DNA from: Aulosira sp. ZfuVER01 | Lineage (GTDB): Bacteria > Cyanobacteriota > Cyanobacteriia > Cyanobacteriales > Nostocaceae | Direction: 5' to 3' | Assembly (NCBI GenBank): GCA_034530615.2 | Contig: JAVRCV020000014.1 | Coordinates: 1-13,071, forward strand | DNA: 13,071 nt | Shown: piece after piece, positions 1 to 13,071 of the stretch | Layout of the letters: each line of letters opens with the position of its first letter | Position numbering within the stretch: position 1 is the first letter of the stretch | Position numbers and translations under genes: made by a program | The notes under the pieces: generated by a model | Database searches by the model: none | The model's input: the letters and a program-made list of their open reading frames with translations, nothing else | Told to the model about the DNA's origin: nothing

Positions 1-94
1 TCAACTCAGCAGTCTGCCTGGGGAATTTGGACAACTGGTCAACTTGCAAACCCTCGACCTCAGGAGTAATCAACTCAGCAGTCTGCCTGGGGAA
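1..94 (+). repeat. LRR-coding direct repeat (69-nt period)
   Basis: tcaactcagcagtctgcctggggaa occurs identically at 1-25 and 70-94. Confidence 0.9.
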
Positions 95-2791
95 ATCAGG
101 AAATTAGCAAATCTGACAGAGCTAGATCTTCGGAGAAATCCACTGCCCATTCCACCTGAGATTTTAGGGAGCAAGAATTTATCAAGAGATCCAGGTGATG
201 TCAATGAAATTCTCGATTTCTATTTTCGAGTACAAGATCCCAAAGAAACTGAACCCCTCTACGAAGCTAAATTTTTAATTGTTGGCGAAGGGGGAGCAGG
301 TAAAACTTCTTTAGCTAATAAAATTCAAAATGAAAGTTACGAACTTCAGCCGGATGAAAAATCAACGGAAGGCATTGAGGTGATTCGCTGGCACTTCACC
401 CAAGCAAATGGCAAAGATTTTCGCGTTAACATCTGGGACTTTGGCGGTCAAGAAATTTACCACCAAACCCATCAGTTTTTCCTCACTGAACGTTCTCTTT
501 ATGCCTTAGTCGCTGATACTCGCAAAGAAAACACAGATTTTTACTGGTGGTTGAAGGTCGTTGAACTCTTAAGTGACAATAGTCCAGTTCTGATTATTAA
601 AAACGAAAAACAAGGCCGTCAATGCGAAGTTAATTATCACCAATTGCGGGGTGAATTCACCAATTTAAAAGAAGCCTTACCAACCAACCTAGCTACTAAT
701 CGTGGTTTACCAGAAATTAAACAAGCGATTCAAGACTACATCAGCAGACTTCCCCACGTTGGTACACTTTTACCAAAACTCTGGGTAAGAGTCCGTTCTG
801 CTTTAGAAAACTATTCCCGCAACTACATTAACTTTTACGAATACGAAAACCTTTGCCGAGTTAATAATTTAACTGACCGTCAAGATATGCTGCGGCTGAG
901 TCGCTATCTGCACGACCTCGGCGTTTGTCTACATTTTCAAGATGATTCTACACTGAAACACTATGTCATCCTCAAACCAGAATGGGGAACTACTGCTGTC
1001 TACAAAGTGTTAGACAATAAAAACGTCAAGGAAAATTTAGGCTGTTTTACCAAGGATAATCTTAAAGATATTTGGAAAAATTGCGAATATGCTGATATGC
1101 GAGATGAACTGCTGCAACTGATGATGCGGTTTAAACTTTGCTACCCAATTCCTAATAGTCCTGGTAACTATATTGCACCGCAACTACTCGATATTGAGCA
1201 ACCTGCCTATAACTGGGACGAAACTAATAACCTAATTTTACGCTACGAATACATGTTCATGCCCAAGGGTATTATCACTCGCTTCATTGTAGAAACACAC
1301 CCTTGGATTGAACAACAAAAACTCGTTTGGCGAAGCGGTGTTGTTCTCGACAAAGACCAAACTCGTGTGGAAGTTATTGAAAATTATAATCTTAAAGAAA
1401 TTAAAATCCGTGTAGAAGGAAACCGCAAGAAAGAATTGCTAGCAGTCGTCACTCACGAACTAGATAAAATCCATAAATCTTTTGAGCGATTGCAGTATGA
1501 CACTCTTGTTCCTTGCAACTGCAAAGAATGTGAAGGAAGCCGAGAACCTTATTCCTACGAATTAGATAAATTATATAAGCGTTTAAAAGCTGGTCGGTAT
1601 CAGATTGAGTGTGAGAACAGCTATCAAATGGTAGATGTTCGCAGGTTAATTGATGATGTTAATCTACAATCCCAATTTGAACCACTACAACAAGAATTGT
1701 CTCAAGCCAGAGATAAATCATTAAAAAAACAACCGATGATAAATTACCATGATTTCCAAATATTAGTAACAGCAGACCGCAAAATTCGCGCTTCCTCAGA
1801 ACAAGGCGATGAATGGGGCGAATTGCGCTTAGAAATGAACAGAATTAAGCTGTCATTAAAACTAATTGATTCTCGCCAAACAGATACCGATTTGCTAAAA
1901 GCCCTAGGTGGCGAACTCTACCAAGCGCTTTTCCCTATAGATATTCGCGGTCAATTACGGGCTACAATTGCAGGCGCACAAGCGAATGATTACGAGGTAC
2001 GCTTGCGCCTAGTATTTGATTCCCCCGAACTAGCCGCCCTACCTTGGGAATTTCTCTATGATGAGGCTACTAAAACTTTCCTTGCAAACAACACTCAAAC
2101 CGTACTCTCGCGTTATGTTGACGTTCCCCTCCAAAAGCGCGACCTGAAAGCCGCAAGCCTACCGCTGAAAGTTTTGCTAGTCATCTCCAGCCCAACTAAC
2201 TTACCTCAATTAGATGTTGCTGAGGAAGAACGCCTCATCCGTGACGCACTGAAAAAACACATAGATGCAGGCCAAATAGAGTTAGATGTGCTACCAGAAG
2301 CCACCATTCGCAACATTAACCAAAAGCTACGCGAAAAGCCATACAATGTTTTCCACTTCATCGGTCACGGTAAATTTGATAACAACAAAGGCTGTATTGC
2401 CCTAGTAGATACCGATGGCAAATACAAACTCTTGGATGATGAGGGTTTTGCCAATTTCTTTTTAGGCAACCGCAGCTTAGGGTTAGCTGTGCTAAATTCC
2501 TGTCAAGGTGCGACGGTATCATCTAACCAAGTATTTGCAGGTATAGCACCTAACCTAGTGCGCCGAGGAATTCCCGCTGTAGTCGCCATGCAATATGAAA
2601 TCCTCGACACCACCGCCAAGCTGTTTGCTGATGAATTTTACCGCACTCTCGCCCTAGGCTGGCCTGTAGATGCAGCTATGCAAACTACCCGCAACGCCAT
2701 TTCGATGGAAGTGGGCTTAGATAAACCTGACTTTGCGACACCAGTGCTGTATATGCGCGCTAAGGATGGAATAATTTTGAGTGGGTTGTGA
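2..2791 (+). CDS. Roco-family protein: LRR - Roc GTPase - COR - CHAT (caspase-like) protease; 5' end lies outside the window
   Basis: Frame is open from base 2 (QLSSLPGEFGQLVNLQTLDLRSNQLSSLPGEI..., 23-aa LRRs). P-loop GEGGAGKTS, switch I STEGI, G3 WDFGGQE, COR motifs (YLHDLGVCLHF, LKPEW), CxCxxC cluster, C-terminal CHAT dyad motifs FHFIGHG and LNSCQG. Confidence 0.93.
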   Translation, partial: QLSSLPGEFGQLVNLQTLDLRSNQLSSLPGEIRKLANLTELDLRRNPLPIPPEILGSKNLSRDPGDVNEILDFYFRVQDPKETEPLYEAKFLIVGEGGAGKTSLANKIQNESYELQPDEKSTEGIEVIRWHFTQANGKDFRVNIWDFGGQEIYHQTHQFFLTERSLYALVADTRKENTDFYWWLKVVELLSDNSPVLIIKNEKQGRQCEVNYHQLRGEFTNLKEALPTNLATNRGLPEIKQAIQDYISRLPHVGTLLPKLWVRVRSALENYSRNYINFYEYENLCRVNNLTDRQDMLRLSRYLHDLGVCLHFQDDSTLKHYVILKPEWGTTAVYKVLDNKNVKENLGCFTKDNLKDIWKNCEYADMRDELLQLMMRFKLCYPIPNSPGNYIAPQLLDIEQPAYNWDETNNLILRYEYMFMPKGIITRFIVETHPWIEQQKLVWRSGVVLDKDQTRVEVIENYNLKEIKIRVEGNRKKELLAVVTHELDKIHKSFERLQYDTLVPCNCKECEGSREPYSYELDKLYKRLKAGRYQIECENSYQMVDVRRLIDDVNLQSQFEPLQQELSQARDKSLKKQPMINYHDFQILVTADRKIRASSEQGDEWGELRLEMNRIKLSLKLIDSRQTDTDLLKALGGELYQALFPIDIRGQLRATIAGAQANDYEVRLRLVFDSPELAALPWEFLYDEATKTFLANNTQTVLSRYVDVPLQKRDLKAASLPLKVLLVISSPTNLPQLDVAEEERLIRDALKKHIDAGQIELDVLPEATIRNINQKLREKPYNVFHFIGHGKFDNNKGCIALVDTDGKYKLLDDEGFANFFLGNRSLGLAVLNSCQGATVSSNQVFAGIAPNLVRRGIPAVVAMQYEILDTTAKLFADEFYRTLALGWPVDAAMQTTRNAISMEVGLDKPDFATPVLYMRAKDGIILSGL

Positions 2792-2809
2792 AGGTAGAAG
2801 GGAAAAGGA

Positions 2810-2897
2810 GGACAAGGGGGACAAGGGGGACAAGATAGAAATAACAAATAACTATTGCCCAATGCCCAATGCCCAATGCCCAATGCCCAATGCCAAA
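2810..2897. repeat. Cyanobacterial short tandem repeats (STRR-type) between convergent genes
   Basis: ggacaaggg x~3 (2810-2834), aaataac x2, tgcccaa x5 plus tgccaaa (2856-2897). Confidence 0.9.
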
Positions 2898-2907
2898 TAT
2901 CCTGTAT

Positions 2908-3393
2908 TCACCACAATTTAATTAGTTGCTTGCCTTCTAAAAATAAATCAAATCTGTGCATATCTTTCTCCGATTCAAAAGCTGCTACTGGTAAGTAGTG
3001 AAATTGAGCTTTTGTCATATATAAAAAGTAATATTCACCCTTTTTGACAGCTTTAGTAAAATGCTCATACCTAAGCTTAGTGATACTCCCATCTTCAAAA
3101 AATATCGCAAAGAAGTCTTCATCCATTTCGCAATATCTACTTTGAAAGTTTAACTCAGAAGTTCTCCCTTGCAGACGCAACCAAAGCGGTACAGAGAGAA
3201 TATAAGCAATAAAACCCAAGCAATACAGCAACCACCAACTAAATTCCTTCTGGATTATAGAAAGGATAATATTTACCACTGCCAAAACTGAAAAGATAAT
3301 TAAGGTTAATTTCATGCGCTTGTAATAATCAACCGCAATAATTGCTCTTAATTCTTTGGGAGATACTTGAAATTGCTTAGTTCTAATGAGCAT
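2908..3393 (-). CDS. YcxB-like membrane protein
   Basis: 161 aa. Two N-terminal hydrophobic helices, then a beta-rich C-terminal domain ending in ...YYFLYMTKAQFHYLPVAAFESEKD, typical of YcxB-family proteins. Confidence 0.75.
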   Translation of the reverse strand: MLIRTKQFQVSPKELRAIIAVDYYKRMKLTLIIFSVLAVVNIILSIIQKEFSWWLLYCLGFIAYILSVPLWLRLQGRTSELNFQSRYCEMDEDFFAIFFEDGSITKLRYEHFTKAVKKGEYYFLYMTKAQFHYLPVAAFESEKDMHRFDLFLEGKQLIKLW

Positions 3394-3431
3394 AATAATT
3401 TATAAGTTGTTATTGAAAGTGTCTAGCCTAT

Positions 3432-3469
3432 AGGAAATGATATCTAGATTTTTCTAGATATCATTTCCT
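3432..3469. terminator. Perfect 17-bp inverted repeat downstream of miaB (terminator or mRNA-stabilising hairpin)
   Basis: aggaaatgatatctaga-tttt-tctagatatcatttcct; no clear U-tract on either strand. Confidence 0.55.
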
Positions 3470-3509
3470 GTCAGAACTCTTGCTAAAACACAATCATCTA
3501 GTCCAAGCA

Positions 3510-4874
3510 TTAAACAGGCATTGCTTGACGCACTTCGATTGGTTCGCCAGTCAAGCTAAAAGCGCGAACTTCGGTGATTTTGACTTTCACCAATTGCCCT
3601 TTAAGTTCTTTAATATCACCAGTAAAGAAAGTCAGACGATTACCCCCTGTGCGTCCCATTACCTGAGTTGGATCTTTGGGGTTTTGGTCTTCTACTAATA
3701 CTTCCTCAATGCGTCCAAAATAACGTTGCGATCGCTCGGCGGCTTTAATACCTACTAAATGATTTAATCTTTGTAGGCGATCGCTTTTTACTTCTTCACT
3801 CAATTGATTTTCCCACAAAGCAGCGGGTGTTCCCGGACGTGGAGAATAAGCGGCGGTATTCAACAGATCAAAGCCAATATCTTCTACTAATTTCAAGGTG
3901 TTTTCAAACTGTGCTTCCGTTTCTCCAGGAAAACCGACAATCGCATCTCCACTAATCGATGCATCTGGCATATAACGGCGGATTGTATCAATTATCCGAC
4001 GGTATTTTTCATGTGTATAACCCCGTGACATTGCCTTCAACAATTCGTTATCCCCAGATTGGAAAGGGATGTGGAAGTGTTCGCAAACCTTGGGTAATTC
4101 TGCACAAGCTTTAATTAAACGCTCAGTAAAATAACGGGGATGACTAGTAGCAAAACGTAGTCTTTCAATACCTGGCACATCATGCACGTAATACAGCAAA
4201 TCTGTGAATGTATGCAGATGGCGCCCTTCGGCTGTTACTCCTGGTAAGTCACGCCCATAAGCGTCAATATTTTGACCGAGTAGGGTAATTTCTTTGTAAC
4301 CTTGCCTGCCTAATTCTTCCATTTCAGCACGAATCGCTTCTGGCGTGCGGGATTGTTCCACACCACGCACATTCGGAACTACGCAATAAGTGCAGCGTTC
4401 GTTGCAGCCATAAATCACATTCACCCAAGCTGTAACTTTGCTATCCCGCCGGGGTTGAGTGATATCTTCCATAATGTGAACTGGCTCGGTAGCCACAACT
4501 TGATTACCTTCAAATACCGACTCCAGCAAATCTTTGAGACGGTTGGCGTGTTGCGGCCCCATCACCAAATCTAATTCGGGGACGCGGCGCAAAAGGCTCT
4601 CACCTTCTTGTTGGGCAACGCATCCAGCAACAATTAATGTTAAATCGGGCTGCTCGTGTTTGCGCTTCGCCTGTCTACCCAGGTAAGAATATACTTTTTG
4701 CTCGGCATTATCCCGAATCGTGCAGGTATTGTAGAGAATTACATCTGCATGATTGGCATCTTCCGAAAATTCAAAGCCCATGTCTTCTAAAATGCCAGCC
4801 ATGCGCTCTGAGTCGGCTTTATTCATTTGGCAACCAAAAGTAGTGATGTGATAGCGGCGTTTAGAAGTGGTCAT
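3510..4874 (-). CDS. miaB: tRNA-2-methylthio-N6-dimethylallyladenosine synthase MiaB
   Basis: N-terminal TFGCQMN...NTC...GCVAQ (UPF0004 cysteines), radical-[39 protein letters not shown]-terminal TRAM domain. Confidence 0.98.
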
Positions 4875-4913
4875 GGGAAATTATGCTTAATCAGCGTAAG
4901 TTATAAGCTTTAT

Positions 4914-4925
4914 ATCTATTCACTC
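4914..4925 (-). other. Putative element end / recombination junction (left-donor GAGT - core GAAT - right-target AGAT)
   Basis: Minus strand reads GAGT-GAAT-AGAT. GAGUGAAU is in the 5' arm of the second RNA loop (6481..6474). AUCUAUUC, its complement on the right side, is in the 3' arm of the first loop (6532..6525). The site is ~85 bp after the recombinase stop. Confidence 0.75.
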
Positions 4926-4946
4926 TAATAAGTGTAGCGAGATTTT

Positions 4947-4980
4947 AAAAGCCCCCCAACCTGTAAAAATTATTGGGGGG
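4947..4980 (-). terminator. Intrinsic terminator after the IS110 recombinase
   Basis: ccccccaa (4952-4959) / ttgggggg (4973-4980) stem followed by CUUUU on the minus strand. Confidence 0.6.
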
Positions 4981-5006
4981 AAATTTTAATAGTTAATGGT
5001 CATTGG

Positions 5007-6374
5007 TCATTTGGCGATCGCGTTCACCAGGTGACTAAACAGCAGGTTAGCAACTTTAGCCATTAATTTACCCTGCAAGTGTTTACCGTTAAGTAATTGT
5101 CTGCCAGATTCATCAGTAAAGTCTTTTAACTTGCTACGGTACTCAAGCATCGTAGCGGCGGTGTCATTATCAGGCAATCTTTCGGTTTCTACTTGGCACA
5201 GAACGTACTGCCAAAACGACATCCTGCACAACGCCGAACCGCTTTTTACTTCAATTAACTCATCACCGGACTGCTCAAGTACTGTACCCATACCTAACCG
5301 CATTTTGAAAGTATCGCGTGAGCGATTGCGTTTAACTCGCTTTACATCCCCAGGCGAACGCTTAACCACAGTTTGACCATCCTGCCGATGCTTCTCTACC
5401 CGTTTAACTTCCCTGACTTCATATTCAATTAGTGGTCTTCCATTACTCAAGAATGCTTCAAACGGGTAAATTCGAGTTAGCAGCCGGGCACGTACACGCA
5501 AGCCAAAACCAAATTTGTCAAAAATCTGGTTGTATTGCTTGAAGCACTCATCATCAAGTAGAGTTTTAATCTCAGCTTCAATCCGCTGCTCGCACAATTC
5601 AATGTCACACAACCAATCACCGTGTAGCCTCAAAATAGGGTCAATGGTAATACCGTAATGGTTAGCAGCTGACGATTCATATTTTGCTGTTAGTGCTTTC
5701 CACGCTTGAGACGATACCTCAAACTGCCTTTCGGCTAACCAACCCCATAATGGAGGTACATTTCCCAATTTGGTGCTTTTAGATTTCACATGGGCAACTT
5801 CTGGAAACTGCCAAGCTAAAACTTGTCTAGCATAGTTAACTATTGGGCTTTGTACCCGGTTCAAATGTTCAAGCTGCTGGCACAGTTCCCTTAGCCGATC
5901 GATTGGTTCGCTTCGGTGCATCAGGAAATATCTAGTGTTTAATTCACCATCTTCGGTGTGGTGTTCTACATCAAGCGGGTAAGCGGCCATAGCCAAAGCA
6001 TCAGCAGCATCAGATTTATTTGGCAGATTTTTACCGCCACGATAGCGGCGTAACTCTATATGCCCAACCCACAAAATCTTAATACCTAAACTGTCAATTA
6101 TTTTTGCCCACAGGCGGGAATAATGATTCCCTGTAGGCTCCATAATTGCAACATTAGCCTGACTTTCCTGAATAAATTTAGCAAAATCAAAAGCTGATTT
6201 CTGCTTCTTTTTAACATCAGGATTGCTATAGAAAACCGGATAATGACTTGATGCTTTATTCCTCGTTTTTTCCCAGTAGGATTTTAACCCACCCTTGGGA
6301 TAAGATGAGAGAACATGAACTGTGACTGATGCTTTAGAAACATCAATACCCAAAGTTTTTAATTCAATTGTCAT
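5007..6374 (-). CDS. IS110-family DEDD recombinase/transposase (bridge recombinase), ~455 aa
   Basis: RuvC-like DEDD motifs LGIDVSK, MEPTG, KSDAADA; coiled-coil middle region; C-terminal LGMGTVLEQSG (catalytic Ser motif) followed by GSALCR. ATG at 6374 is preferred over TTG at 6392. Confidence 0.9.
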   Translation of the reverse strand: MTIELKTLGIDVSKASVTVHVLSSYPKGGLKSYWEKTRNKASSHYPVFYSNPDVKKKQKSAFDFAKFIQESQANVAIMEPTGNHYSRLWAKIIDSLGIKILWVGHIELRRYRGGKNLPNKSDAADALAMAAYPLDVEHHTEDGELNTRYFLMHRSEPIDRLRELCQQLEHLNRVQSPIVNYARQVLAWQFPEVAHVKSKSTKLGNVPPLWGWLAERQFEVSSQAWKALTAKYESSAANHYGITIDPILRLHGDWLCDIELCEQRIEAEIKTLLDDECFKQYNQIFDKFGFGLRVRARLLTRIYPFEAFLSNGRPLIEYEVREVKRVEKHRQDGQTVVKRSPGDVKRVKRNRSRDTFKMRLGMGTVLEQSGDELIEVKSGSALCRMSFWQYVLCQVETERLPDNDTAATMLEYRSKLKDFTDESGRQLLNGKHLQGKLMAKVANLLFSHLVNAIAK

Positions 6375-6412
6375 GGTTCTGTTAGTAAACAAAGGTACAT
6401 TTAGTTGTAGTT

Positions 6413-6618
6413 AAAAACCCAGTTTCAAAGCGCACGAATCACCCTAACGCCCCACATCCTAAGCAGGGGCGCGATTCACTCCTAAACGAACTGGGAAGCC
6501 ATACAACTCCGGGAAGCTGCGCTTGAATAGATGAACGCCTCACGCTAGAGAGCGCAATTCTATTACAACGCCGCATTCCCGATGTGTGATGGTGCGAACT
6601 GCTTTGGACACAATCCGC
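6413..6618 (-). ncRNA. Putative bridge RNA (target-binding stem-loop 6592..6499; donor-binding stem-loop 6495..6418)
   Basis: Directly upstream of the IS110 gene. Two long stem-loops with internal loops; G-U pairs favour the minus strand. Four CGUU-preceded segments end in GAAU or AUUC, and two of them match the element junction. Ends in GGG-UUUUU. Confidence 0.8.
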
Positions 6619-6679
6619 GACTCTGGCATCTGCCAGAGTTTCGGCTACTGTGTCAGGTAGCCTCATCAGGCGGTTATTG
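6607..6679 (-). ncRNA. Type I hammerhead ribozyme; predicted cleavage between 6619 and 6618 (GUC|)
   Basis: CCGC-CUGAUGA-GGCUAC[CUGACACA]GUAGCC-GAAA-CUCUGGC[AGAU]GCCAGAG-UC|GCGG. All core nucleotides are present and stems I/II/III pair perfectly. Loop II GACACA can pair with downstream UGUGUC (6612..6607). Confidence 0.95.
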
Positions 6680-6871
6680 TTTACTTAATTTCCTAACTTG
6701 TTGAAGTAACTCGATATTTTTTTCAATTCCAAATCTGACCGGAGACAACTCACCATCAGGTAGTCTGTCTATTAACTCTTGTAAGTTTAGACAGGTTGAT
6801 GTTAGGTGATAAGTCAAAATATCAACTGTCCTTTCTAGTGCTTGAATTCTTTGTGCTACGTCTGAATCCAT
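6674..6871 (-). CDS. Small hypothetical coiled-coil protein (65 aa)
   Basis: ATG preceded by AAGGA, amphipathic helical sequence; the UAA stop abuts hammerhead stem I. Confidence 0.7.
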   Translation of the reverse strand: MDSDVAQRIQALERTVDILTYHLTSTCLNLQELIDRLPDGELSPVRFGIEKNIELLQQVRKLSKQ

Positions 6872-6973
6872 TATTTATCCTTATAAACTGAACTTGGTAA
6901 TTGAATCATTCCCGAACCTATCCCACTAATACCAAAAATGTGATAATCTGCTTTTCAAATCACAAAGGGTGTA

Positions 6974-7258
6974 TCACAGTATGGCTGGGCGGTTTGAAGG
7001 ATTAACAGACTTAAAATGGAGGCTGTTTGAAGATATATTTCCAGAAGATTTATTTTTGAGGTAATCTTTGATAGTTTGCTCGATTTGTTCAGGACTTAAT
7101 TTATCGCACTGGGCATTGGCTTCTTTACTGATTCTGGAAACCCAGTAATTCAGTGGTTGACCTGTTAACTCACACAGATATCTAACTGCAATGCCTAGTG
7201 AAAGACTATTGGTTATGTAGTCTTCTTTGCCCATCAAGAATTTGGATTTGTTTGTCAT
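6974..7258 (-). CDS. Hypothetical protein (94 aa), paralogous to the C-terminal half of 7255..7740
   Basis: ATGA overlap with the upstream gene; clear similarity to that gene's C-terminus. Confidence 0.8.
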   Translation of the reverse strand: MTNKSKFLMGKEDYITNSLSLGIAVRYLCELTGQPLNYWVSRISKEANAQCDKLSPEQIEQTIKDYLKNKSSGNISSNSLHFKSVNPSNRPAIL

Positions 7259-7740
7259 AACTTCTCTTTATGCCTCTCAACAACCATGAACGATGCATCG
7301 GATTCTTTGGCTTTGTTTGCAAAATAAGCACTGATTTGCTGTTCAATTTCTTCATTAGTTAAAGTTTCAAACTGTGCAGTCCCCTGTTTCCAAATTTGTT
7401 GTATCCAGAAATCAGGAGATTGACCTGTTAAGCTGGCAAGAAATTTAACTGCCAGTCCGCTAACCATGCTGTTAAGCACAAAGTCTCCCTTGTCCATCAA
7501 AAATTTAGATTTATCTGTGGACTCTTCGGGGATGGAAGGTGATGGTGCTTCTTCTAGGGCGGCGATAATGGCTGAGGCGTTTTCACCATAAAAAACTTGG
7601 GTGTCGCCATCACACCAGGTAACAATGATAATTCCTTCATTTTTGTCATCAATGACTTGCCGGATTTGAGCCAGATTTACCCAACCGGCGCTGGGGGTTT
7701 TGCAAGTAAACACGCTTTTGACTGATATTATGGTGTGCAT
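7255..7740 (-). CDS. Hypothetical two-domain protein (161 aa)
   Basis: ATG start, Pro/Ser/Glu linker (EEAPSPSIPEES), C-terminal domain duplicated in the next gene. Confidence 0.8.
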   Translation of the reverse strand: MHTIISVKSVFTCKTPSAGWVNLAQIRQVIDDKNEGIIIVTWCDGDTQVFYGENASAIIAALEEAPSPSIPEESTDKSKFLMDKGDFVLNSMVSGLAVKFLASLTGQSPDFWIQQIWKQGTAQFETLTNEEIEQQISAYFANKAKESDASFMVVERHKEKL

Positions 7741-7826
7741 GGTTCAGGCTTATCCAATGGCTAAGTTGGGTTGAGCTTTTGCGATCGCGTCCAATCTCCC
7801 AAAAAGCGCGATCGCAAAAAAATTGA

Positions 7827-8216
7827 CTAAAACCCGTCAGGGATACCGCTATCTGTGGCAGTATCCCCAGCTTCAAAAGGGATATCGTCTATGCTGGGTT
7901 CCTGCCCGGTTGAGTTATCTTGTGATGGTTGGAGTTTTTCTAGTTCAGCCTTGGTTTGTTCGAGTTTTGAAATCTCTCGCTTGAGGTTGTACACCTGGTC
8001 GTCTAGTTGGTTTCTTTTGGCTTCCAAGTCCAAAATCTCTTTTTGAAACTGCTTACCAATCTGGGAACGGATGTTACGCTCAACCAATTCCATTAGATGC
8101 AAAATTGCCTCATCCTCATCATCTCCTTGGGCAACTTCACCAAACAACTCTAGGTGCTTATTTTCGTAGTTCCCCAGGTTTAAAACCCGTTTGTAACTGA
8201 TGCTTTTAAGTTGCAT
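7827..8216 (-). CDS. Hypothetical coiled-coil protein with acidic DDIPF-containing tail (129 aa)
   Basis: N-terminal alpha/beta segment (LNLGNYE), heptad-rich middle, acidic tail. Confidence 0.8.
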   Translation of the reverse strand: MQLKSISYKRVLNLGNYENKHLELFGEVAQGDDEDEAILHLMELVERNIRSQIGKQFQKEILDLEAKRNQLDDQVYNLKREISKLEQTKAELEKLQPSQDNSTGQEPSIDDIPFEAGDTATDSGIPDGF

Positions 8217-8292
8217 AATTTACCCTGTACACGTTTCAAGTCTTTGAATCAAACGCGATCGCATTTTTGAAGTGCGATCGCAAAAAATTGAG

Positions 8293-8481
8293 TTATCCTT
8301 GAACCTCAACCGGTTGCTTGTCGAAAGCTACACAAAACAAGACACCAGGATTTAGCCTGCGTAAAATGCTCATATAAGATTCAGCGTCAGTTCGAGTGCG
8401 AAAACGATTAACGCAGACATTCTTAACTGTTGTTTCACAGCGAAAAACAGCCCACGGTTTAAGGTCAGCGCGATAAGTCAT
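8293..8481 (-). CDS. Small hypothetical protein (62 aa)
   Basis: MTY...PW...RFR.R.DA......LRRL.P...F...FD pattern, which I recall from small Nostocales hypothetical proteins; first clear gene of the leftward operon. Confidence 0.75.
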   Translation of the reverse strand: MTYRADLKPWAVFRCETTVKNVCVNRFRTRTDAESYMSILRRLNPGVLFCVAFDKQPVEVQG

Positions 8482-8615
8482 AATTTAATTTCCAATTTTT
8501 CAAAAAAGGCCAGCGTCAAGCTACACCAAGCTGACGCTGGTGTTCCATACGTTTGACTGACAGAAGAATGACTCCAGGTTGGAGGAAAGCGCCAGCTGTA
8601 ACACTGGCGAATCAT
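8478..8615 (-). CDS. Possible 45-aa leader ORF (MIRQCYSWRFPP...FFEKLEIKL), not in the ORF track
   Basis: Open frame whose TGA overlaps the ATG of 8293..8481 (ATGA); it spans a terminator-like hairpin. Confidence 0.3.
   Translation of the reverse strand: MIRQCYSWRFPPTWSHSSVSQTYGTPASAWCSLTLAFFEKLEIKL
8502..8540 (-). terminator. Terminator/attenuator in the leader of the leftward operon
   Basis: CCAGCGUCA-(13 nt)-UGACGCUGG-CC-UUUUUU on the minus strand, ~20 nt before the 62-aa gene. Confidence 0.6.
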
Positions 8616-8731
8616 GGTTTAATTTTGAATTCACAACTGAGTAGAGATTAGCGTCTAAATTTATACCTCCATAGAGACAGCATGACTGTGCAGCGCCGGG
8701 TGAAGGGAAAGCGCTATGTGATTGTTATGTG

Positions 8732-8800
8732 ACTGCGAACATTACATAGTTAACTGCGAACATTGCACAGTTAACTCCGATGATTACGCAGTTAACTCCG
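8732..8800. repeat. 21-bp tandem repeat (3 units plus a partial)
   Basis: actgcgaacattacatagtta / actgcgaacattgcacagtta / actccgatgattacgcagtta / actccg. Confidence 0.85.
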
Positions 8801-8938
8801 CGCCAATGACCAATAACTATTGACCATTGACTCTGGACTTTTGACTTAGGGTGTTTCCGCGCCGGGCACTTTGGCAAGTGGTGCGGGTGCTTGCTCCAGA
8901 ACAACACGCAAGGTTTAGGCGTGGGGGAGCTTGTTGTT

Positions 8939-9021
8939 TTGTTCTACCAAACAAGTTAATATTATATTGTTCTACGAAACCAGTCAACATTTCGTAGAAC
9001 AATATATTTTTTTTGTTCTAC
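8939..9021. promoter_or_regulatory. Operator array in the divergent promoter region (TTGTTCTAC x4, including a 15-bp perfect inverted repeat)
   Basis: TTGTTCTAC at 8939, 8967 and 9013, inverted at 8994-9002. tattgttctacgaaa (8965-8979) / tttcgtagaacaata (8990-9004). Immediately upstream of the RHH gene. Confidence 0.7.
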
Positions 9022-9035
9022 AATTGGAAAAAGTA

Positions 9036-9446
9036 ATGATAAAAGAGAATGCCGAGACCCAAGATATTAGCGGAAGATGCGATAAACGCATCAATCAGGA
9101 TCAGCCGAGCGGATTGGGAGAAGTTAGAGACGATAGCTCAATCAATAGGCTTAAAGAGCAAAGCGGATCTGCTGCGAGCGATTGCACAGGGGGAGATACG
9201 TATCGGGCAAATGTCGAATACGGAGACAGCCCTGCTGGGAAACTCCTAAGTCGTCTAGAGTTGTTGGAGAAAGCTTTTTATGGTTACGTGCATGGTCATC
9301 AAGAGCGACTCAAGACACGCTACAAAGAGAGTACAGAACTAGAATCTGCTTTCACAGAAGAATTACAAGTGATTAAGCAAGGGCTTCGTGATTTAGCGCA
9401 ACAAGTCGAAGACGACTCAGAATTAAACAACAATGAAAAACCATAA
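9036..9446 (+). CDS. Overlapping frame with C-terminal coiled-coil; expressed from ATG 9036 or by -1 frameshift from the RHH gene
   Basis: The part after 9240 (KLLSRLELLEKAFYGYV...LRDLAQQVE) looks like a real helical protein, while the part overlapping the RHH gene does not. G_GGA_AAC heptamer at 9237-9243. Confidence 0.6.
   Translation: MIKENAETQDISGRCDKRINQDQPSGLGEVRDDSSINRLKEQSGSAASDCTGGDTYRANVEYGDSPAGKLLSRLELLEKAFYGYVHGHQERLKTRYKESTELESAFTEELQVIKQGLRDLAQQVEDDSELNNNEKP
9049..9249 (+). CDS. Ribbon-helix-helix (CopG/Arc-like) DNA-binding protein
   Basis: MPRPK... then beta-strand ASIRIS, helix RADWEKLETIAQSIG, turn, helix SKADLLRAIAQG. Confidence 0.8.
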   Translation: MPRPKILAEDAINASIRISRADWEKLETIAQSIGLKSKADLLRAIAQGEIRIGQMSNTETALLGNS

Positions 9447-9479
9447 GCCGTCCTGCCTGCATGGGTGAGGGCGGTTTTT
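9447..9479 (+). terminator. Intrinsic terminator
   Basis: gccgtcct...agggcggt stem followed by a T-run, directly after the 9446 stop. Confidence 0.6.
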
Positions 9480-9537
9480 AATGGGCATCGCTCCTCACCT
9501 CAAAGTGCGATCGCCAATGACCAATGACAAATGACAA

Positions 9538-9804
9538 ATGACTAACCAAACCCAAGCCCAAATCGAAGCAGCCATTGAAACACTCAAGGATGCTAAAAAC
9601 GCCGCCATCACATCGCTATACGAATTTGTGGATTTTGTACGCACCATTGATTCTGAATTAACTCCCAGTGAAGCATTGATCATCACTGGATACGTATTGC
9701 ATGAATTACCAGAATTGTTTAAGAAAAATCCCGGTCTGGTAAATCAAATCCAAGAGATAGCAACAAAATTAAAACTCGAACGCTCAGATATTAGCAACAG
9801 CTAA
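9538..9804 (+). CDS. Hypothetical helical protein (88 aa)
   Basis: Co-oriented in the rightward cluster, protein-like composition; the start is embedded in atgacaa heptamer repeats. Confidence 0.75.
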   Translation: MTNQTQAQIEAAIETLKDAKNAAITSLYEFVDFVRTIDSELTPSEALIITGYVLHELPELFKKNPGLVNQIQEIATKLKLERSDISNS

Positions 9805-9893
9805 CAACCTGATTTTTAATACCTAAAAAATTGAAATGCCTCCTAGAGTTAGCAGCTACTAAGAGGCGATTGGATAAAATCTCTACTCTCATT

Positions 9894-10793
9894 ATGACAT
9901 TAAAAGCATCACAAACTCTGTCACTAAGGACAGAAAAAGAACTGGCATTTTTCCTAGAACAGAACACAATTCCATTGACTCAAGCACTATGGGAATGGAT
10001 AGCATTACAAGGAAAAATCGGTACACAAATAGAAATTGACCTCACGGACTTTGAGCAATTTGTCACTAAACACCGAGGTACAAAATTTGCTCGGTGGTGG
10101 TTGTTAAAACGCTTCAAATGGCTTATCCAACATAGAGTAATCCAAGTAATCAAAGAATTCAGTAGTACAGCTTACAGAATACTTTTAAGACCCTTTGATT
10201 GGTTAAAACCACGTAAAAAAAATTCGCAAAATCACTTGCAAAATCTCAACTCGACTTGCGATTTAACCACCTCAAACGAGCAATCAGCAAGGGACGGGGA
10301 GAACAACAACAACACTTATATTCCTAAGATATCGACTAGCGAACGCCAAGAGTTAAACAAGATACTCGAAATCATCAAGCTTTGCGAACAATATGGTTAT
10401 CAACCATCTGCACCAATTTTTGATTTTTCTATTGACGAACTCAAAGCAAGTTTAGAGCAATGGTCAAGTCAACAGTATGAGGAATTAGAAAGACGCTATG
10501 ACATCCTCAAACTGTGTGCTGAATATGAGATTTACTACCATCCCAACAAAGCAGGCACTCAAGAACTGTTTAATTACCCCATTGAAGAAATCGAATTAGC
10601 TCTAAAACACTTCATCAAAAGCGGTGGATTTGAAAAACGTGCCAACGGTAAACCAATTATTTCTAATCCCCAAGGTTGGTTAATTCGTTGCTTACAGCAA
10701 TCTTGGTGGGAACAAGTGACATTTGGCATTGAGCAATTTCTCAATGTCATGAATGCCTTTTTACCTAAGAACATCCCTAGGGATTATTCCTAA
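9894..10793 (+). CDS. Putative replication-initiator/replisome-organiser-like protein (~299 aa)
   Basis: N-terminal winged-helix-like region, low-complexity linker, internal ~45-aa duplication, C-terminal ISNPQGWLIRCL motif. ATG 9894 is preferred over TTG 9831. The function is inference. Confidence 0.6.
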   Translation: MTLKASQTLSLRTEKELAFFLEQNTIPLTQALWEWIALQGKIGTQIEIDLTDFEQFVTKHRGTKFARWWLLKRFKWLIQHRVIQVIKEFSSTAYRILLRPFDWLKPRKKNSQNHLQNLNSTCDLTTSNEQSARDGENNNNTYIPKISTSERQELNKILEIIKLCEQYGYQPSAPIFDFSIDELKASLEQWSSQQYEELERRYDILKLCAEYEIYYHPNKAGTQELFNYPIEEIELALKHFIKSGGFEKRANGKPIISNPQGWLIRCLQQSWWEQVTFGIEQFLNVMNAFLPKNIPRDYS

Positions 10794-10853
10794 AAGTTAG
10801 TTGAAAAAAATAAGCCGCAAAGCGCGGCTCCATCTACCTATCAAAGGAAAATT

Positions 10854-11054
10854 ATGCCAGATTCATCTTTACTATTCGACCGTCAGCAAATCGAGATTTT
10901 CAAAAACTGGATACGCCGCCGCTTCATAGCAGAAGCCGATTTTCAACAGATGCCAGTAGAATTTGCCCTGGCGTGGTCAGCTGCTCTCAAAGAATTGTCC
11001 CAAACGGTTGCTCATGAGATAGTTCCGTTTCACCGCCGCGGGGGTGAGTCATGA
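10854..11054 (+). CDS. Hypothetical protein (66 aa)
   Basis: AAGGA SD before the ATG; ATGA overlap with the next gene. Confidence 0.7.
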   Translation: MPDSSLLFDRQQIEIFKNWIRRRFIAEADFQQMPVEFALAWSAALKELSQTVAHEIVPFHRRGGES

Positions 11055-11710
11055 GTAAACAGCTAACTTTATTCGACTTGAGTGCGATTACTCCGCCAAC
11101 TACCCAGGTATATGACCCCGCTTGGGATGATGATACAGTTGATTCTCAAATTGCCAGTCAGGGAATTGATAATTCCTCCTCTACTCCTGAGTCACAGTCA
11201 CCACTTGCCCAGGAGTCTTTTTCTCATAACCGTTGGAATCCTGCTGATTTCGGGGAAGTGCCACACAAGGCAGACGGCGATCATCTGACAATTTTCTACG
11301 ATGACACCAACGAACCACCAGATCCAGATGATTATCAAAATCTCACCGATTATGAGCAAGCCTGGCGCGAGTGGCGATTACGTGTTGGGGCGCAAGTAGA
11401 GAGTGATACCCAACTAGACACCGTAGAATTGCTTGTTGGGGCGCAAGTAAATCGTGATACTAAAAAAGTTGCGCCCCAACACGATAAGCAAACTCATTGG
11501 GTAGAAAAGTACTGGGTGCAGCGGGAAGGAAACAAGTACTGGTACTATCGCTACTGCTGGATGACCGGGCGCAAAAAACACCGCCGCTACATTGGCTCAG
11601 TTGAAAGTGCGATCGCAAAAAATCGGAAATTGGAAGTTGAGAGTGCGATCGCGGATGGAGAATCCCCGGCTGAGATTGAAAATCTAATTCGCTCCTGGCG
11701 CAAGTCCTAA
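11051..11710 (+). CDS. Hypothetical mobile-element protein with acidic N-terminus and a basic/aromatic C-terminal beta domain (likely nucleic-acid binding)
   Basis: QLTLFD, EPPDPDDY...YEQAWREW and YWYYRYCW...KKHRRYIG motifs; translationally coupled to the previous gene. Confidence 0.8.
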   Translation: MSKQLTLFDLSAITPPTTQVYDPAWDDDTVDSQIASQGIDNSSSTPESQSPLAQESFSHNRWNPADFGEVPHKADGDHLTIFYDDTNEPPDPDDYQNLTDYEQAWREWRLRVGAQVESDTQLDTVELLVGAQVNRDTKKVAPQHDKQTHWVEKYWVQREGNKYWYYRYCWMTGRKKHRRYIGSVESAIAKNRKLEVESAIADGESPAEIENLIRSWRKS

Positions 11711-12016
11711 AGCCTGTGGATTCTCCTGTAACAACTTCTGCAACTTTCGCAACTCATCCCAGGTGCGAGAGTTAATATCAGGCTCCTTTGACTGTGGAGT
11801 TGCCCGATAATTTTCCTTTCGCCAGGTGATGTATCGGTCGATGGCATCTAATACTATCGCTGCATTGTCTGTTACAAGGCAATTACCCGCATCTAATTGC
11901 CGGGCATATTCTGTAATTGGAAGTTCCAAAACTTCTGGAACGCGAATAACGGTTGTTTTCCCATGCTTCCAACTGTTACCCCAAGTCGTGGTTCTGCGTC
12001 CGCCTTTACTACTCAT
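11684..12016 (-). CDS. Small putative DNA-binding protein (RHH-like; ~110 aa)
   Basis: MSSKGGRRTTTWGNSWKHGKTTVIRVPEVLELPITEYARQLD shows a strand-helix pattern. ATG 12016 is preferred over the ORF-track start. Confidence 0.65.
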   Translation of the reverse strand: MSSKGGRRTTTWGNSWKHGKTTVIRVPEVLELPITEYARQLDAGNCLVTDNAAIVLDAIDRYITWRKENYRATPQSKEPDINSRTWDELRKLQKLLQENPQALGLAPGAN

Positions 12017-12028
12017 GATTGCATCTCT

Positions 12029-12049
12029 ATTGCCTGTTACAAGGCAATT
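12029..12049. promoter_or_regulatory. Palindromic operator-like site, second copy at 11864-11884
   Basis: attgcct-gttaca-aggcaat-t; 20/21 identical to attgtctgttacaaggcaatt at 11864. Confidence 0.55.
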
Positions 12050-12123
12050 TATCATGAAAAATGCGATCGCACTTCTTGGGAATTGGGATGCTTCCAAAGT
12101 GCGATCGCGTAGCAAAAAGCAAA

Positions 12124-12297
12124 TTATGGGTCAATCCTAAGCGATGGCGGGAGTAAATCAGCCTCATATTCATCCCAAGCTTTGTCAGCGATACCTTCTA
12201 GAGATTTGGCTAGCACCCGGGGGTCGTCCATATCCCCATTCAGGATTTGTCCAATTAAATAACCAAGGGACAGTACCAAGTCAGTTTTGTTGATCAT
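12124..12297 (-). CDS. Small acidic hypothetical protein (57 aa; MINKTDLVLSLGYLIGQILNGD...LPPSLRIDP), not in the ORF track
   Basis: Its ATG overlaps the recombinase TGA (ATGA) and it fills the gap to the next gene. Confidence 0.7.
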   Translation of the reverse strand: MINKTDLVLSLGYLIGQILNGDMDDPRVLAKSLEGIADKAWDEYEADLLPPSLRIDP

Positions 12298-12875
12298 AAA
12301 GTGGCGATCGCCCCCTTAATCGCGTCTGGGTCAATGTCGATGTAACGCTCAAGTGCCTTAAAATCCCGATGCCCGGTGATTTTCTTAATTTTGTAGGGGT
12401 CAATGCCGTTGCGGTGCAGTTTTGTTATAAAACTCCGGCGGGTAGTGTGAGTGCTAATTCCCTTACTCGCAAAACTAGCTTTTTCACAAGCTCGTTTGAG
12501 AATGTCATAAGCATTGCGCCAAGTCATCGGCTTAGTTCCATCCCGTCCGGGAAACAGCCAAATGTTATCAGTCTCAGGTTTGTAAGATGCCAACGATTCA
12601 GCCAAAACTTGATGTACAGGCACTTGCCGCGTTTCACGACTGCCATCAGGCCGCTTTTTGCGAGTTGCAGCTCGAAAAGTAATGTATTCCCGTGGCTTGC
12701 CATCATCATCATAAACATCAGCAACTTTTAGCTGAATCAATGCCCCCCACCTTTCCCCCGTGTACCAGCCTAAATCCAAAAGTAATTTGTATTTTTGGGT
12801 TTGAATTTGACGACGTAATTTAGAATATTCCGTGTCAGTGATACAGGCGGCCTGTCCGTGACCGTCAACCTTCAT
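12294..12875 (-). CDS. Small tyrosine recombinase (catalytic domain only; resolvase-like)
   Basis: Catalytic residues TGERWG (R), RKK (K), HTTRR (HxxR), GHRD (H), ERYID (Y). 193 aa, no N-terminal core-binding domain. Confidence 0.93.
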   Translation of the reverse strand: MKVDGHGQAACITDTEYSKLRRQIQTQKYKLLLDLGWYTGERWGALIQLKVADVYDDDGKPREYITFRAATRKKRPDGSRETRQVPVHQVLAESLASYKPETDNIWLFPGRDGTKPMTWRNAYDILKRACEKASFASKGISTHTTRRSFITKLHRNGIDPYKIKKITGHRDFKALERYIDIDPDAIKGAIATL

Positions 12876-12895
12876 TCATTGACCATCCTTTTTCA

Positions 12896-12936
12896 ATGTT
12901 CCGCTTTTACCTCTGTTACAGGTAAAAGTGGAATAT
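12896..12936. promoter_or_regulatory. Inverted repeat with 7-bp spacer upstream of the tyrosine recombinase (candidate res/core site or operator)
   Basis: atgttccgcttttacct-ctgttac-aggtaaaagtggaatat, arms 15/17 complementary; related arms recur at 13009-13035. Confidence 0.6.
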
Positions 12937-13071
12937 CCAAGCTTTCAGCTATTACTAAAAGTAAGCACTATCCTAGTGCTGGCAAGCCTTTCACGTAATC
13001 AGTGAATCTTCTGCTTTTACATAAAACTGGAATATTTACTTTATTTTTGAAGCCGCATAAAACGGATTTAT

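Follow-up and report, generated by a model that had tools for sequence, protein, structure and literature searches.

An IS110-family bridge recombinase as the probable RNA-guided integrase of a conserved 11–16 kb element in Nostoc and related cyanobacteria

In the IS110 elements IS621 and ISCro4, a bridge RNA encoded 5' of the recombinase gene carries two internal loops. In each loop, the 5' guide is sense and the 3' guide antisense, and both contain a core that is also present in the target or the donor. The IS621 core is a CT dinucleotide, and small IS110 elements express the bridge RNA from a promoter formed at the circle junction. Here, we describe a locus of Aulosira sp. ZfuVER01 (GCA_034530615.2) at which an IS110-family recombinase, guided by a bridge RNA, very probably inserts a whole conserved element of 11–16 kb. 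The stretch analyzed, hereafter the window, is the complete contig C14 (JAVRCV020000014.1; 13,071 bp) of a genome of 8.03 Mb in 83 contigs. The locus shares the RNA arrangement of IS621 and ISCro4, and chains of these two enzymes are the best fold matches of the recombinase model. The cyanobacterial protein differs in being ~130 aa longer, 14–16% identical in the structural alignment and under Pfam thresholds. Further differences are a GAA core, donor guides with one bulged base, a left end located 6–14 kb from the RNA and a hammerhead motif in front of it.

Larger units have also been described. The main text of a preprint reports IS110 elements of up to ~100 kb with cargo, in which complementarity of the left and right target guides (LTG/RTG) to the flanks of the whole locus is enriched; these large loci are mostly plasmid-derived and enriched in resistance genes, and whole-unit mobility is lost with growth (Hu, Xie, Yang & Rubin, bioRxiv 10.64898/2026.08.14.744561). 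As far as that text describes them, they resemble the cyanobacterial elements in having boundaries far past 1.5 kb, target guides complementary to the flanks of the whole unit, and tandem or adjacent insertions; the elements described here differ in their single conserved gene set, in the absence of a plasmid match for a 320-aa cargo protein and in occurring as whole units at different sites. The same main text contains none of the terms cyanobacteri*, Nostoc, prophage, inovir* and filamentous. A second precedent comes from the filamentous phages of Neisseria (Nf1-4/MDA) and Thermus (Zuza8, Zuza27, phiOH16), where an IS110-family transposase at the terminus of a prophage of ~8 kb or larger is thought to integrate and excise it (PMC11437467, PMC7058167). 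In the parts of these reports drawn on here, the likeness lies in the terminal IS110-family gene of a prophage-sized unit, and neither a guide RNA nor a ribozyme is described. The cyanobacterial elements are larger, and Pfam and PHROG searches of the window and of the relatives' loci L028, L029 and L112 matched neither an inovirus-type Zot/pI ATPase nor a rolling-circle Rep. Whereas the Neisseria phage, according to the same accounts, targets one repeat family (dRS3), the cyanobacterial elements occupy varied sites that fit their own guides. The concept is already in print, and these elements are a distinct variant of it, with a conserved cargo, a recombinase subfamily and a core particular to them, an RNA encoded at a great distance from the left end, and a ribozyme motif.

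The original prediction, made from the window alone, held that an IS110 bridge recombinase serves as the integrase of a >8-kb element, and called the enzyme domesticated and the element replicative. Its central claim is largely supported, the far junction having been found and being specified by the left target guide. 'Domesticated' is the wrong word, since the enzyme serves another mobile element and not the host, and 'replicative' keeps a qualified standing that draws on a circular contig, a depth anomaly and a weak Rep-like lead. Boundaries, guide–flank covariation, RNA structure, synteny and the circular assembly in a relative were all observed in silico.

The element meets host DNA next to miaB, where the window carries the following features.

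1 to 4921: host DNA with genes for a LRR-Roc-COR-CHAT protein, a YcxB-like protein and MiaB
3510 to 4874, minus strand: host miaB (tRNA methylthiotransferase; NCBIfam TIGR01574, 458 bits), on the host side of the near junction
4919 to 4921, minus strand: core trinucleotide GAA (recombinase strand), common to target and donor, as read from empty sites in relatives and from contig C6 from base 55
4922 to 5006, minus strand: right end (RE), running from the recombinase stop codon through a G6/C6 hairpin to a terminal motif mirrored by the left donor guide
5007 to 6374, minus strand: IS110-family bridge recombinase, 455 aa from a conserved ATG, or 461 aa if translation began at an in-frame TTG at 6392

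In 12 genomes of the same genus, miaB and its upstream region are 87–94% identical to the window up to position 4921 (4928 in 3 of the 12), and beyond it these genomes carry other sequence, i.e., an empty site. The near junction is therefore 4921|4922, and the recombinase is the last element gene before it, as had been noted. Past the junction, the closest empty sites match contig C6 of the Aulosira genome itself from base 55 onwards (86% over 1.4 kb). Because the empty-site sequence resumes at this base, C6:1–54 represents the far (left) end (LE) of the insertion, in agreement with the prediction that the window holds no left end. C6:1–43 is 93% identical to the end of the last far-module gene of the element in genome G003. 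The two junctions have just ATTC in common, and we found no att repeats of a tyrosine integrase. GAA directly follows the right-end motif in 38 of 41 loci; in the window copy, the fourth base (4918) is duplicated as well. Judged from sequence, the integrated element appears to span from 4922 past 13071, through an unassembled piece, to C6:1–54. Its portion in the window amounts to ~8.15 kb, about two thirds of an 11–16 kb whole. Searches of this genome with the far-module proteins of G003, G013, and G046 returned only a short remnant-like match on contig C23; since the far-module genes were not found, the piece between C14 and C6 is missing from the assembly.

The ~300 nt located 5' of the recombinase start codon are conserved in all elements, and a bridge RNA of ~250 nt is present 5' of 43 recombinase loci. 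Its consensus fold contains two internal loops, each consisting of a 5' block, a hairpin and a 3' block. Paired cells make up 93.2% of the RNA alignment compared with 32–48% when the partners are slid, and 22 pairs have changed on both sides; none of 500 shuffles attained the observed values.

6418 to 6495, minus strand: donor-binding loop, with the left donor guide at 6474–6486, the right donor guide at 6436–6446 and the inner hairpin at 6447–6472 (from the alignment and pair counts)
6511 to 6580, minus strand: target-binding loop, with the left target guide at 6557–6566 (sense to the far flank) and the right target guide at 6525–6533 (antisense to the miaB-side flank)

Guide and flank sequences are given in recombinase orientation. 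In an alignment of seven elements, two variable RNA blocks equal the flanks: the left target block corresponds to the 5 nt plus GAA just before the left end of the element, and the right target block is the reverse complement of GAA plus the 5 nt after the right end. The window copy matches over 5 nt plus GAA on the left and over GAA plus 5 nt on the right. For loci L025, L026, and L027, the left flank was predicted from the left guide and then found 11–14 kb upstream, abutting a conserved left-end 9-mer; in each case it agreed with the prediction at 9 of 10 positions. The left guide fits the far-end flank, 6–14 kb away, in all seven loci with a known left end (36 of 42 positions), which 0 of 1854 derangements reached. 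The mismatches sit at position -6, where the target has a T in 7/7 loci and the guide has one only in L029. Of the 36 dereplicated loci in which a right-end motif could be recognised, 26 have a right guide free of mismatches to the 5 nt after GAA, whereas shuffled pairings gave a mean of 0.75 and a maximum of 6 (0 of 10,000 reached 26). Before this count, we dropped L050 and L072, which represent the same places as L025 and L029, three loci lacking the right-end motif, and two duplicate guide/flank pairs.

Copies within one genome have different guides, each fitting its own flank (L049 and L080, both 9/9). The closest relative found, L049 of Nostoc sp. CHAB 5844, resides at the same miaB site as the window copy. 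Its flank differs from that of the window (4916–4925) at the fifth base after GAA, and its right guide is altered at that same base, resulting in a 9/9 fit to its own flank. The match of the guides to both flanks indicates that the RNA specifies the far boundary of the whole unit and that the tyrosine recombinase encoded in the cargo does not explain the ends. When the left-end 9-mer was searched in five Nostoc-type genomes (G041–G045), it gave 25–45 matches per strand compared with 7–14 for the reversed control; these were not assignable to loci and yielded no further left ends. The dozens of diverged copies, with guides readable against both flanks, offer ready material for working out how a distant IS110 subfamily with a GAA core, 5+5 nt and bulged donor pairing selects its targets.

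On the donor side, the left donor block covaries with three right-end types; equally, the RE motif types covary with the donor guide across loci, and the right donor block mirrors the start of the left end. The left donor guide pairs with the end of RE and the right one with the start of LE, each with one bulged base, the bulges being our own reading of the sequences.

In G003 (L028:14469–14600), the left end of the element abuts an ~80-bp remnant of another element's right end, which is of the other end type and is matched by the left target guide of the G003 element. A left guide equal to that right-end type is found in nine elements, namely that of G003 and those of L061, L084, L055, L070, L083, L068, L071, and L082, and G006 holds a resident element of this right-end type at the same thioredoxin site as G003. 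Given these guides and the remnant in G003, the right junction of a resident element seems to serve as an insertion site for further elements.

The recombinase matches NCBIfam NF051857 ('IS110 family transposase') with 459 bits and scores 25.1 bits against Pfam DEDD_Tnp_IS110, under the cut-off of 29. With an AlphaFold (AF2) model built from a 30-sequence alignment (pLDDT 86), Foldseek returned IS621 and ISCro4 chains as the top 10 matches in the PDB (E 1e-8 to 1e-7), and RuvC chains were also among the fold matches. Residues D11, E79, D122, and D125 and the motif S369-G370-D371 are invariant in the 30 sequences. The NF051857 match, the invariant DEDD residues and the RuvC fold matches together identify an N-terminal RuvC-like DEDD domain. 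The model aligns over its full length to IS621/ISCro4 (454–465 columns, E 1e-8), which, together with the invariant S369-G370-D371, argues for a C-terminal Tnp domain with a catalytic serine; the choice of the catalytic serine is presumptive.

The conserved RNA opens with 67 nt that are arranged like a hammerhead ribozyme, i.e., a 4-bp stem I, CUGAUGA, stem II, GAAA, stem III, GUC, and the 3' strand of stem I.

6607 to 6673, minus strand: type-I hammerhead motif, with stem I formed by 6670–6673 and 6615–6618, CUGAUGA at 6663–6669, stem II at 6643–6662, GAAA at 6639–6642, stem III at 6620–6639 and C17 at 6619
6649 to 6654 with 6607 to 6612, minus strand: pseudoknot between loop II and the sequence past stem I
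Between 6619 and 6618, minus strand: predicted cut, after which the 5' end of the bridge RNA would be 6618

The best Rfam match of this region was RAGATH-1-hammerhead (RF03152), over the full model length with 27 bits (E 0.02), and the motif resembles the type I / RAGATH-1 class in CUGAUGA, GAAA, the GUC triplet, the three stems and the loop II contact past stem I. It differs in scoring below every Rfam hammerhead threshold and in being fused to a bridge RNA; at the gathering threshold, the window gave no Rfam hit. Of 41 loci, 39 have the full motif and 37 the canonical box; eight RNAs that seemed to be without the box carry it ~30 nt farther upstream, where an inserted hairpin follows it. All 37 aligned RNAs have CGAAAC and GUCGCGG unchanged, and the conserved catalytic core (CUGANGA, GAAA, and a cleavage triplet) is in place. 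Compensatory double changes were detected in 6/8 pairs of stem III, 1/6 pairs of stem II and 2/6 pairs of the pseudoknot. A distant recombinase clade also has the hammerhead, with stems II and III of different sequence.

As the original prediction had pointed out, the RNA begins at the stop codon of the last gene of a five-gene co-oriented operon. Conserved RNA and hammerhead start at 6673, right after the stop codon at 6674–6676, and the same arrangement is seen in relatives. A terminator scan found no terminator-like site between operon and RNA, and the counts of the promoter and terminator scans were not above chance. Since the left end lies 6–14 kb from the RNA gene, no circle-junction promoter can drive the RNA. 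Going by its layout and position, the hammerhead would release the 5' end of the bridge RNA from a longer transcript by cleaving itself. In a literature survey that covered paper listings and passages of one preprint, we found no paper linking hammerhead ribozymes with IS110 or bridge RNA, and the hammerhead–bridge RNA fusion is a new feature here. A natural ribozyme–guide fusion would show how guide RNA can be produced from a polycistronic transcript without a junction promoter, and is the same design that genome engineers have built by hand.

We propose that the recombinase at the right end acts as the integrase of the element and is guided by the RNA encoded just 5' of its gene. The target-binding loop would read ~5 nt, GAA, and 5 nt of the host site, the donor-binding loop would read the joined right and left ends of the element, and the whole unit would be moved in or out by recombination at the GAA core. 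The bridge RNA would be transcribed with the upstream five-gene operon and then be freed by the hammerhead that starts after the operon stop codon. From the features described here we infer activity, co-transcription, ribozyme cleavage, replication and the role of the tyrosine recombinase. The locus would then be a natural, well-bounded case of a bridge recombinase that moves a defined 11–16 kb unit.

Protein and DNA searches detected a single copy of the recombinase and its surroundings in this genome. A search of 41 genomes, comprising the Aulosira genome and 40 relatives, gave matches in 15, mostly as a single full-length copy. Eight loci of up to 20 kb around the recombinases of relatives were fetched, and in five of them the cargo genes of the window are found in the same order; the remaining three comprise one with weak matches, one deletion remnant, and one broken copy. 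In 61 loci from species-representative genomes, cargo homologues accompany most recombinases for which upstream sequence is available, including a clade with 35–41% identity. The expectation that homologues are present once or a few times per genome and are syntenic with the cargo was thus borne out. The element family occurs in Nostoc, Calothrix, Tolypothrix, and related cyanobacteria; these relatives and the gene content put the genome itself among the heterocyst-forming cyanobacteria. miaB adjoins none of the eight fetched loci, and among the other loci only L049, whose recombinase is 88–89% identical. The element of G013 splits a DUF2887–DUF4351 gene.

Two loci illustrate decay. In G011 (L030), the RNA is missing, the recombinase gene is truncated by ~30 codons at its start, and only ~3 kb separates the right end from a left-end-like motif. 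In G009 (L032), TGA stops and an internal deletion disrupt the recombinase.

The cargo encoded in the window is arranged in the following modules.

6674 to 8481, minus strand: five-gene operon with open reading frames (ORFs) at 8293–8481 (62 aa), 7827–8216 (129 aa), 7255–7740 (161 aa), 6974–7258 (94 aa), and 6674–6871 (65 aa), ending at the ribozyme motif
8482 to 9048: divergent intergenic region between the minus- and plus-strand modules (from the ORF layout)
9049 to 11710, plus strand: module conserved across elements, with a 66-aa protein (9049–9249), an 88-aa ORF, a 320-aa protein (9831–10793), a 66-aa ORF, and a 219-aa protein (11051–11710)
11684 to 12875, minus strand: ORFs of 143 aa and 57 aa, followed by a 193-aa tyrosine recombinase (12294–12875)
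12876 to 13071, plus strand: start of the far module, where contig C14 breaks inside a hairpin

Homologues of the 161-, 129-, and 62-aa operon proteins adjoin the recombinases of relatives, and none of the five operon proteins matched a Pfam or PHROG family. The 94-aa protein is paralogous to the C-terminal half of the 161-aa protein, with a similar KSKFLM... domain, and conservation of the 161-aa protein in most relatives is confined to its N-terminal 65 aa. Promoter-like sites lie at 9030–9001 and 8987–8959 on the minus strand of the intergenic region, whose total count of such sites is not above chance. The divergent repressor that had been predicted is weak in the window, where the 66-aa protein at 9049–9249 has a possible NikA-like ribbon-helix-helix match (E 0.059), and the regulator is clear in a relative (HTH_3, E 1e-12). 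A Rep-like gene, also predicted, stands as a winged-helix lead: the Atlas look-alikes of the 320-aa protein are winged-helix replication initiators at 0.93–0.94, and the best PDB matches of its modeled N-terminal domain are winged-helix proteins, all with E > 0.08. Sequence and profile searches of this protein family against the PDB gave only matches with E > 0.1.

The predicted tyrosine recombinase is present at 12294–12875 (Pfam Phage_integrase, 62 bits; phrog_216, 117 bits) and consists of the catalytic domain only; homologues that are 51–67% identical are encoded in most elements. The 219-aa protein has a weak C-terminal match to an arm-DNA-binding-like domain (Pfam Arm-DNA-bind_3, E 4e-4) and matches phrog_1 (E 1e-3). 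As the 193-aa recombinase lacks an N-terminal domain and the 219-aa protein shows integrase arm/N-terminal matches, the two might represent a split recombinase system. The short tyrosine recombinase is most likely a multimer resolvase.

The hairpin at which contig C14 breaks precedes 6–11 further plus-strand genes in relatives. This far module encodes lectin-type proteins (Laminin_G_3, F5/8 type C), a coiled-coil protein of 842–854 aa, and small membrane proteins. Pfam and PHROG searches of the window, L028, L029, and L112 found no capsid, terminase, portal, packaging ATPase, or relaxase/conjugation family, in line with the original remark that no capsid or conjugation genes were recognisable, and six far-module proteins of L028 have no P-loop. 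The Atlas look-alikes of a G003 far-module protein reach only 0.80 and are uninformative. With a regulator, a Rep-like protein, a tyrosine recombinase, and a lectin/coiled-coil far module, the cargo looks like that of a small temperate episome or virus-like element.

Whole elements measure ~11.4 kb in G003, 12.4 kb in G005, 15.3 kb in G014, 15.9 kb in G013, and 16.1 kb in G006. In two loci, L061 and L065, RE is joined directly to LE. One of these is the MEGAHIT contig G046:C669 (16,334 bp), which contains a whole element and has identical 141-bp ends, so that it assembles as a circle of 16,193 bp. In the Aulosira genome, the last ~54 nt of the window (13014–13071) are common to contigs of 684 and 1255 nt that have far higher depth in three public sequencing runs, a possible source of the assembly. 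Depth of the shared contigs was 7207–7320 compared with 163 in run X1, 5088 compared with 840–913 in run X2 and 357 compared with 188 in run X3, corresponding to 45x, 6x, and 1.9x the chromosome. Contig C14 breaks where it does because these terminal nucleotides are shared with much deeper contigs. The depth may reflect a variable molecule of high copy number on which the start of the far module is also found.

Several observations weigh against RNA-guided mobility of a whole, replicating unit. Regarding the recombinase, a Pfam search did not detect Transposase_20, and sequence and profile searches of the PDB returned no IS110 entry. Regarding the guides, the right guide is imperfect in 10 of the 36 loci; two of these are RE|LE junctions, and others may be decayed or rearranged. 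The hammerhead score of 27 is under the RAGATH-1 gathering score of 56.3, Rfam found only tRNA and no hammerhead family at gathering score in eight relatives' loci, and stem I shows no compensatory change. The Rep-like assignment of the 320-aa protein is weak and serves as a lead only, and a tblastn search with this protein, the only element protein so searched, had no match in plasmids or phages. The 16,193-bp circular assembly could be either an episome or a tandem array. The public contigs from the runs showed no joint and, among those listed, no loose end at 4922, and no excision, empty site, or circle junction was seen for this genome; rare excised forms are invisible in contigs. Finally, broken copies are found in L076, L085, L087, L088, G009, and G011.

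An expanded IS110 locus could account for part of these data: an ordinary IS110 would have accreted neighbouring DNA, the cargo would be a passenger, and the circular contig would reflect a tandem duplication. The main text of the 2026 preprint reports just such a size continuum, to ~100 kb, with loci growing stepwise through additions and through tandem duplication. The elements are mosaic in their cargo, searches for a capsid, terminase, packaging ATPase, or relaxase gave no hit, and the Rep call is a lead. We nevertheless consider this explanation unlikely. The same core cargo accompanies the recombinases in the same order from 89% down to 35% identity, and among the loci with upstream sequence there is no cargo-free minimal copy. 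Free IS copies of ~1.7–2 kb with an end near 6680–6970 are found neither in this genome nor in the relatives' loci, and the locus is not a canonical minimal IS110 of 1.2–1.6 kb with its left end just upstream of the RNA and multiple near-identical copies. Moreover, the 320-aa protein has no plasmid-derived match, and the coupling of the ribozyme to the operon points to an integrated design.

The island in this genome might also be a fossil, inserted long ago by the bridge-RNA mechanism and now immobile and vertically inherited. Several copies are degraded, some elements being fossils judging from the broken ones, the closest relative L049 resides at the same miaB site, and G003 and G006 share an insertion site. 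For the window copy, this appears rather improbable: its recombinase, its RNA with the guides, and its ends are all intact, and both flanks agree with the guides. Where the window and L049 share the miaB site, a difference in the flank comes with one in the guide. Other genomes hold elements at different sites, and RE–LE joined forms exist in assemblies.

The notion that the tyrosine recombinase is the integrase and the IS110 unit a passenger IS at the element edge finds support in a Phage_integrase catalytic domain conserved in most elements and in the usual location of integrases at an edge. It can be set aside as highly improbable, since the tyrosine recombinase gene is internal once the far module is counted, its 193-aa product lacks an N-terminal DNA-binding domain, the ends share just 3–4 nt, there is no IS left end near the RNA, and the insertion sites vary between genomes, each spelled by the bridge RNA guides at both ends.

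With insertion of the whole unit by the bridge recombinase as the preferred explanation, we tentatively raise a broader possibility, in which heterocyst-forming cyanobacteria would host, in these elements, a new family of temperate episomes or unconventional viruses. The elements would replicate as circles of 11–16 kb with RNA-guided lysogeny, in which a ribozyme-released guide ties integration or excision to element expression and the attachment site, including resident right ends, is reprogrammed for each copy. For Nostoc and its relatives, the findings suggest a class of integrating episomes, or perhaps of viruses, that has gone unrecognised, as well as possible tools for cyanobacteria that are hard to engineer.

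Two minor observations concern the assembly around the locus. The first bases of the contig (1–94) fall within LRR repeats of the Roc-COR-CHAT gene and overlap with the terminal part of contig C79 (C79:162768–162935) at 95–100%; on the basis of this overlap, C79 probably precedes C14. A short repeat at 9514–9546 recurs in many other contigs from the runs and is the point at which the contig is broken in run X2; the loose ends show tandem 7-nt units.

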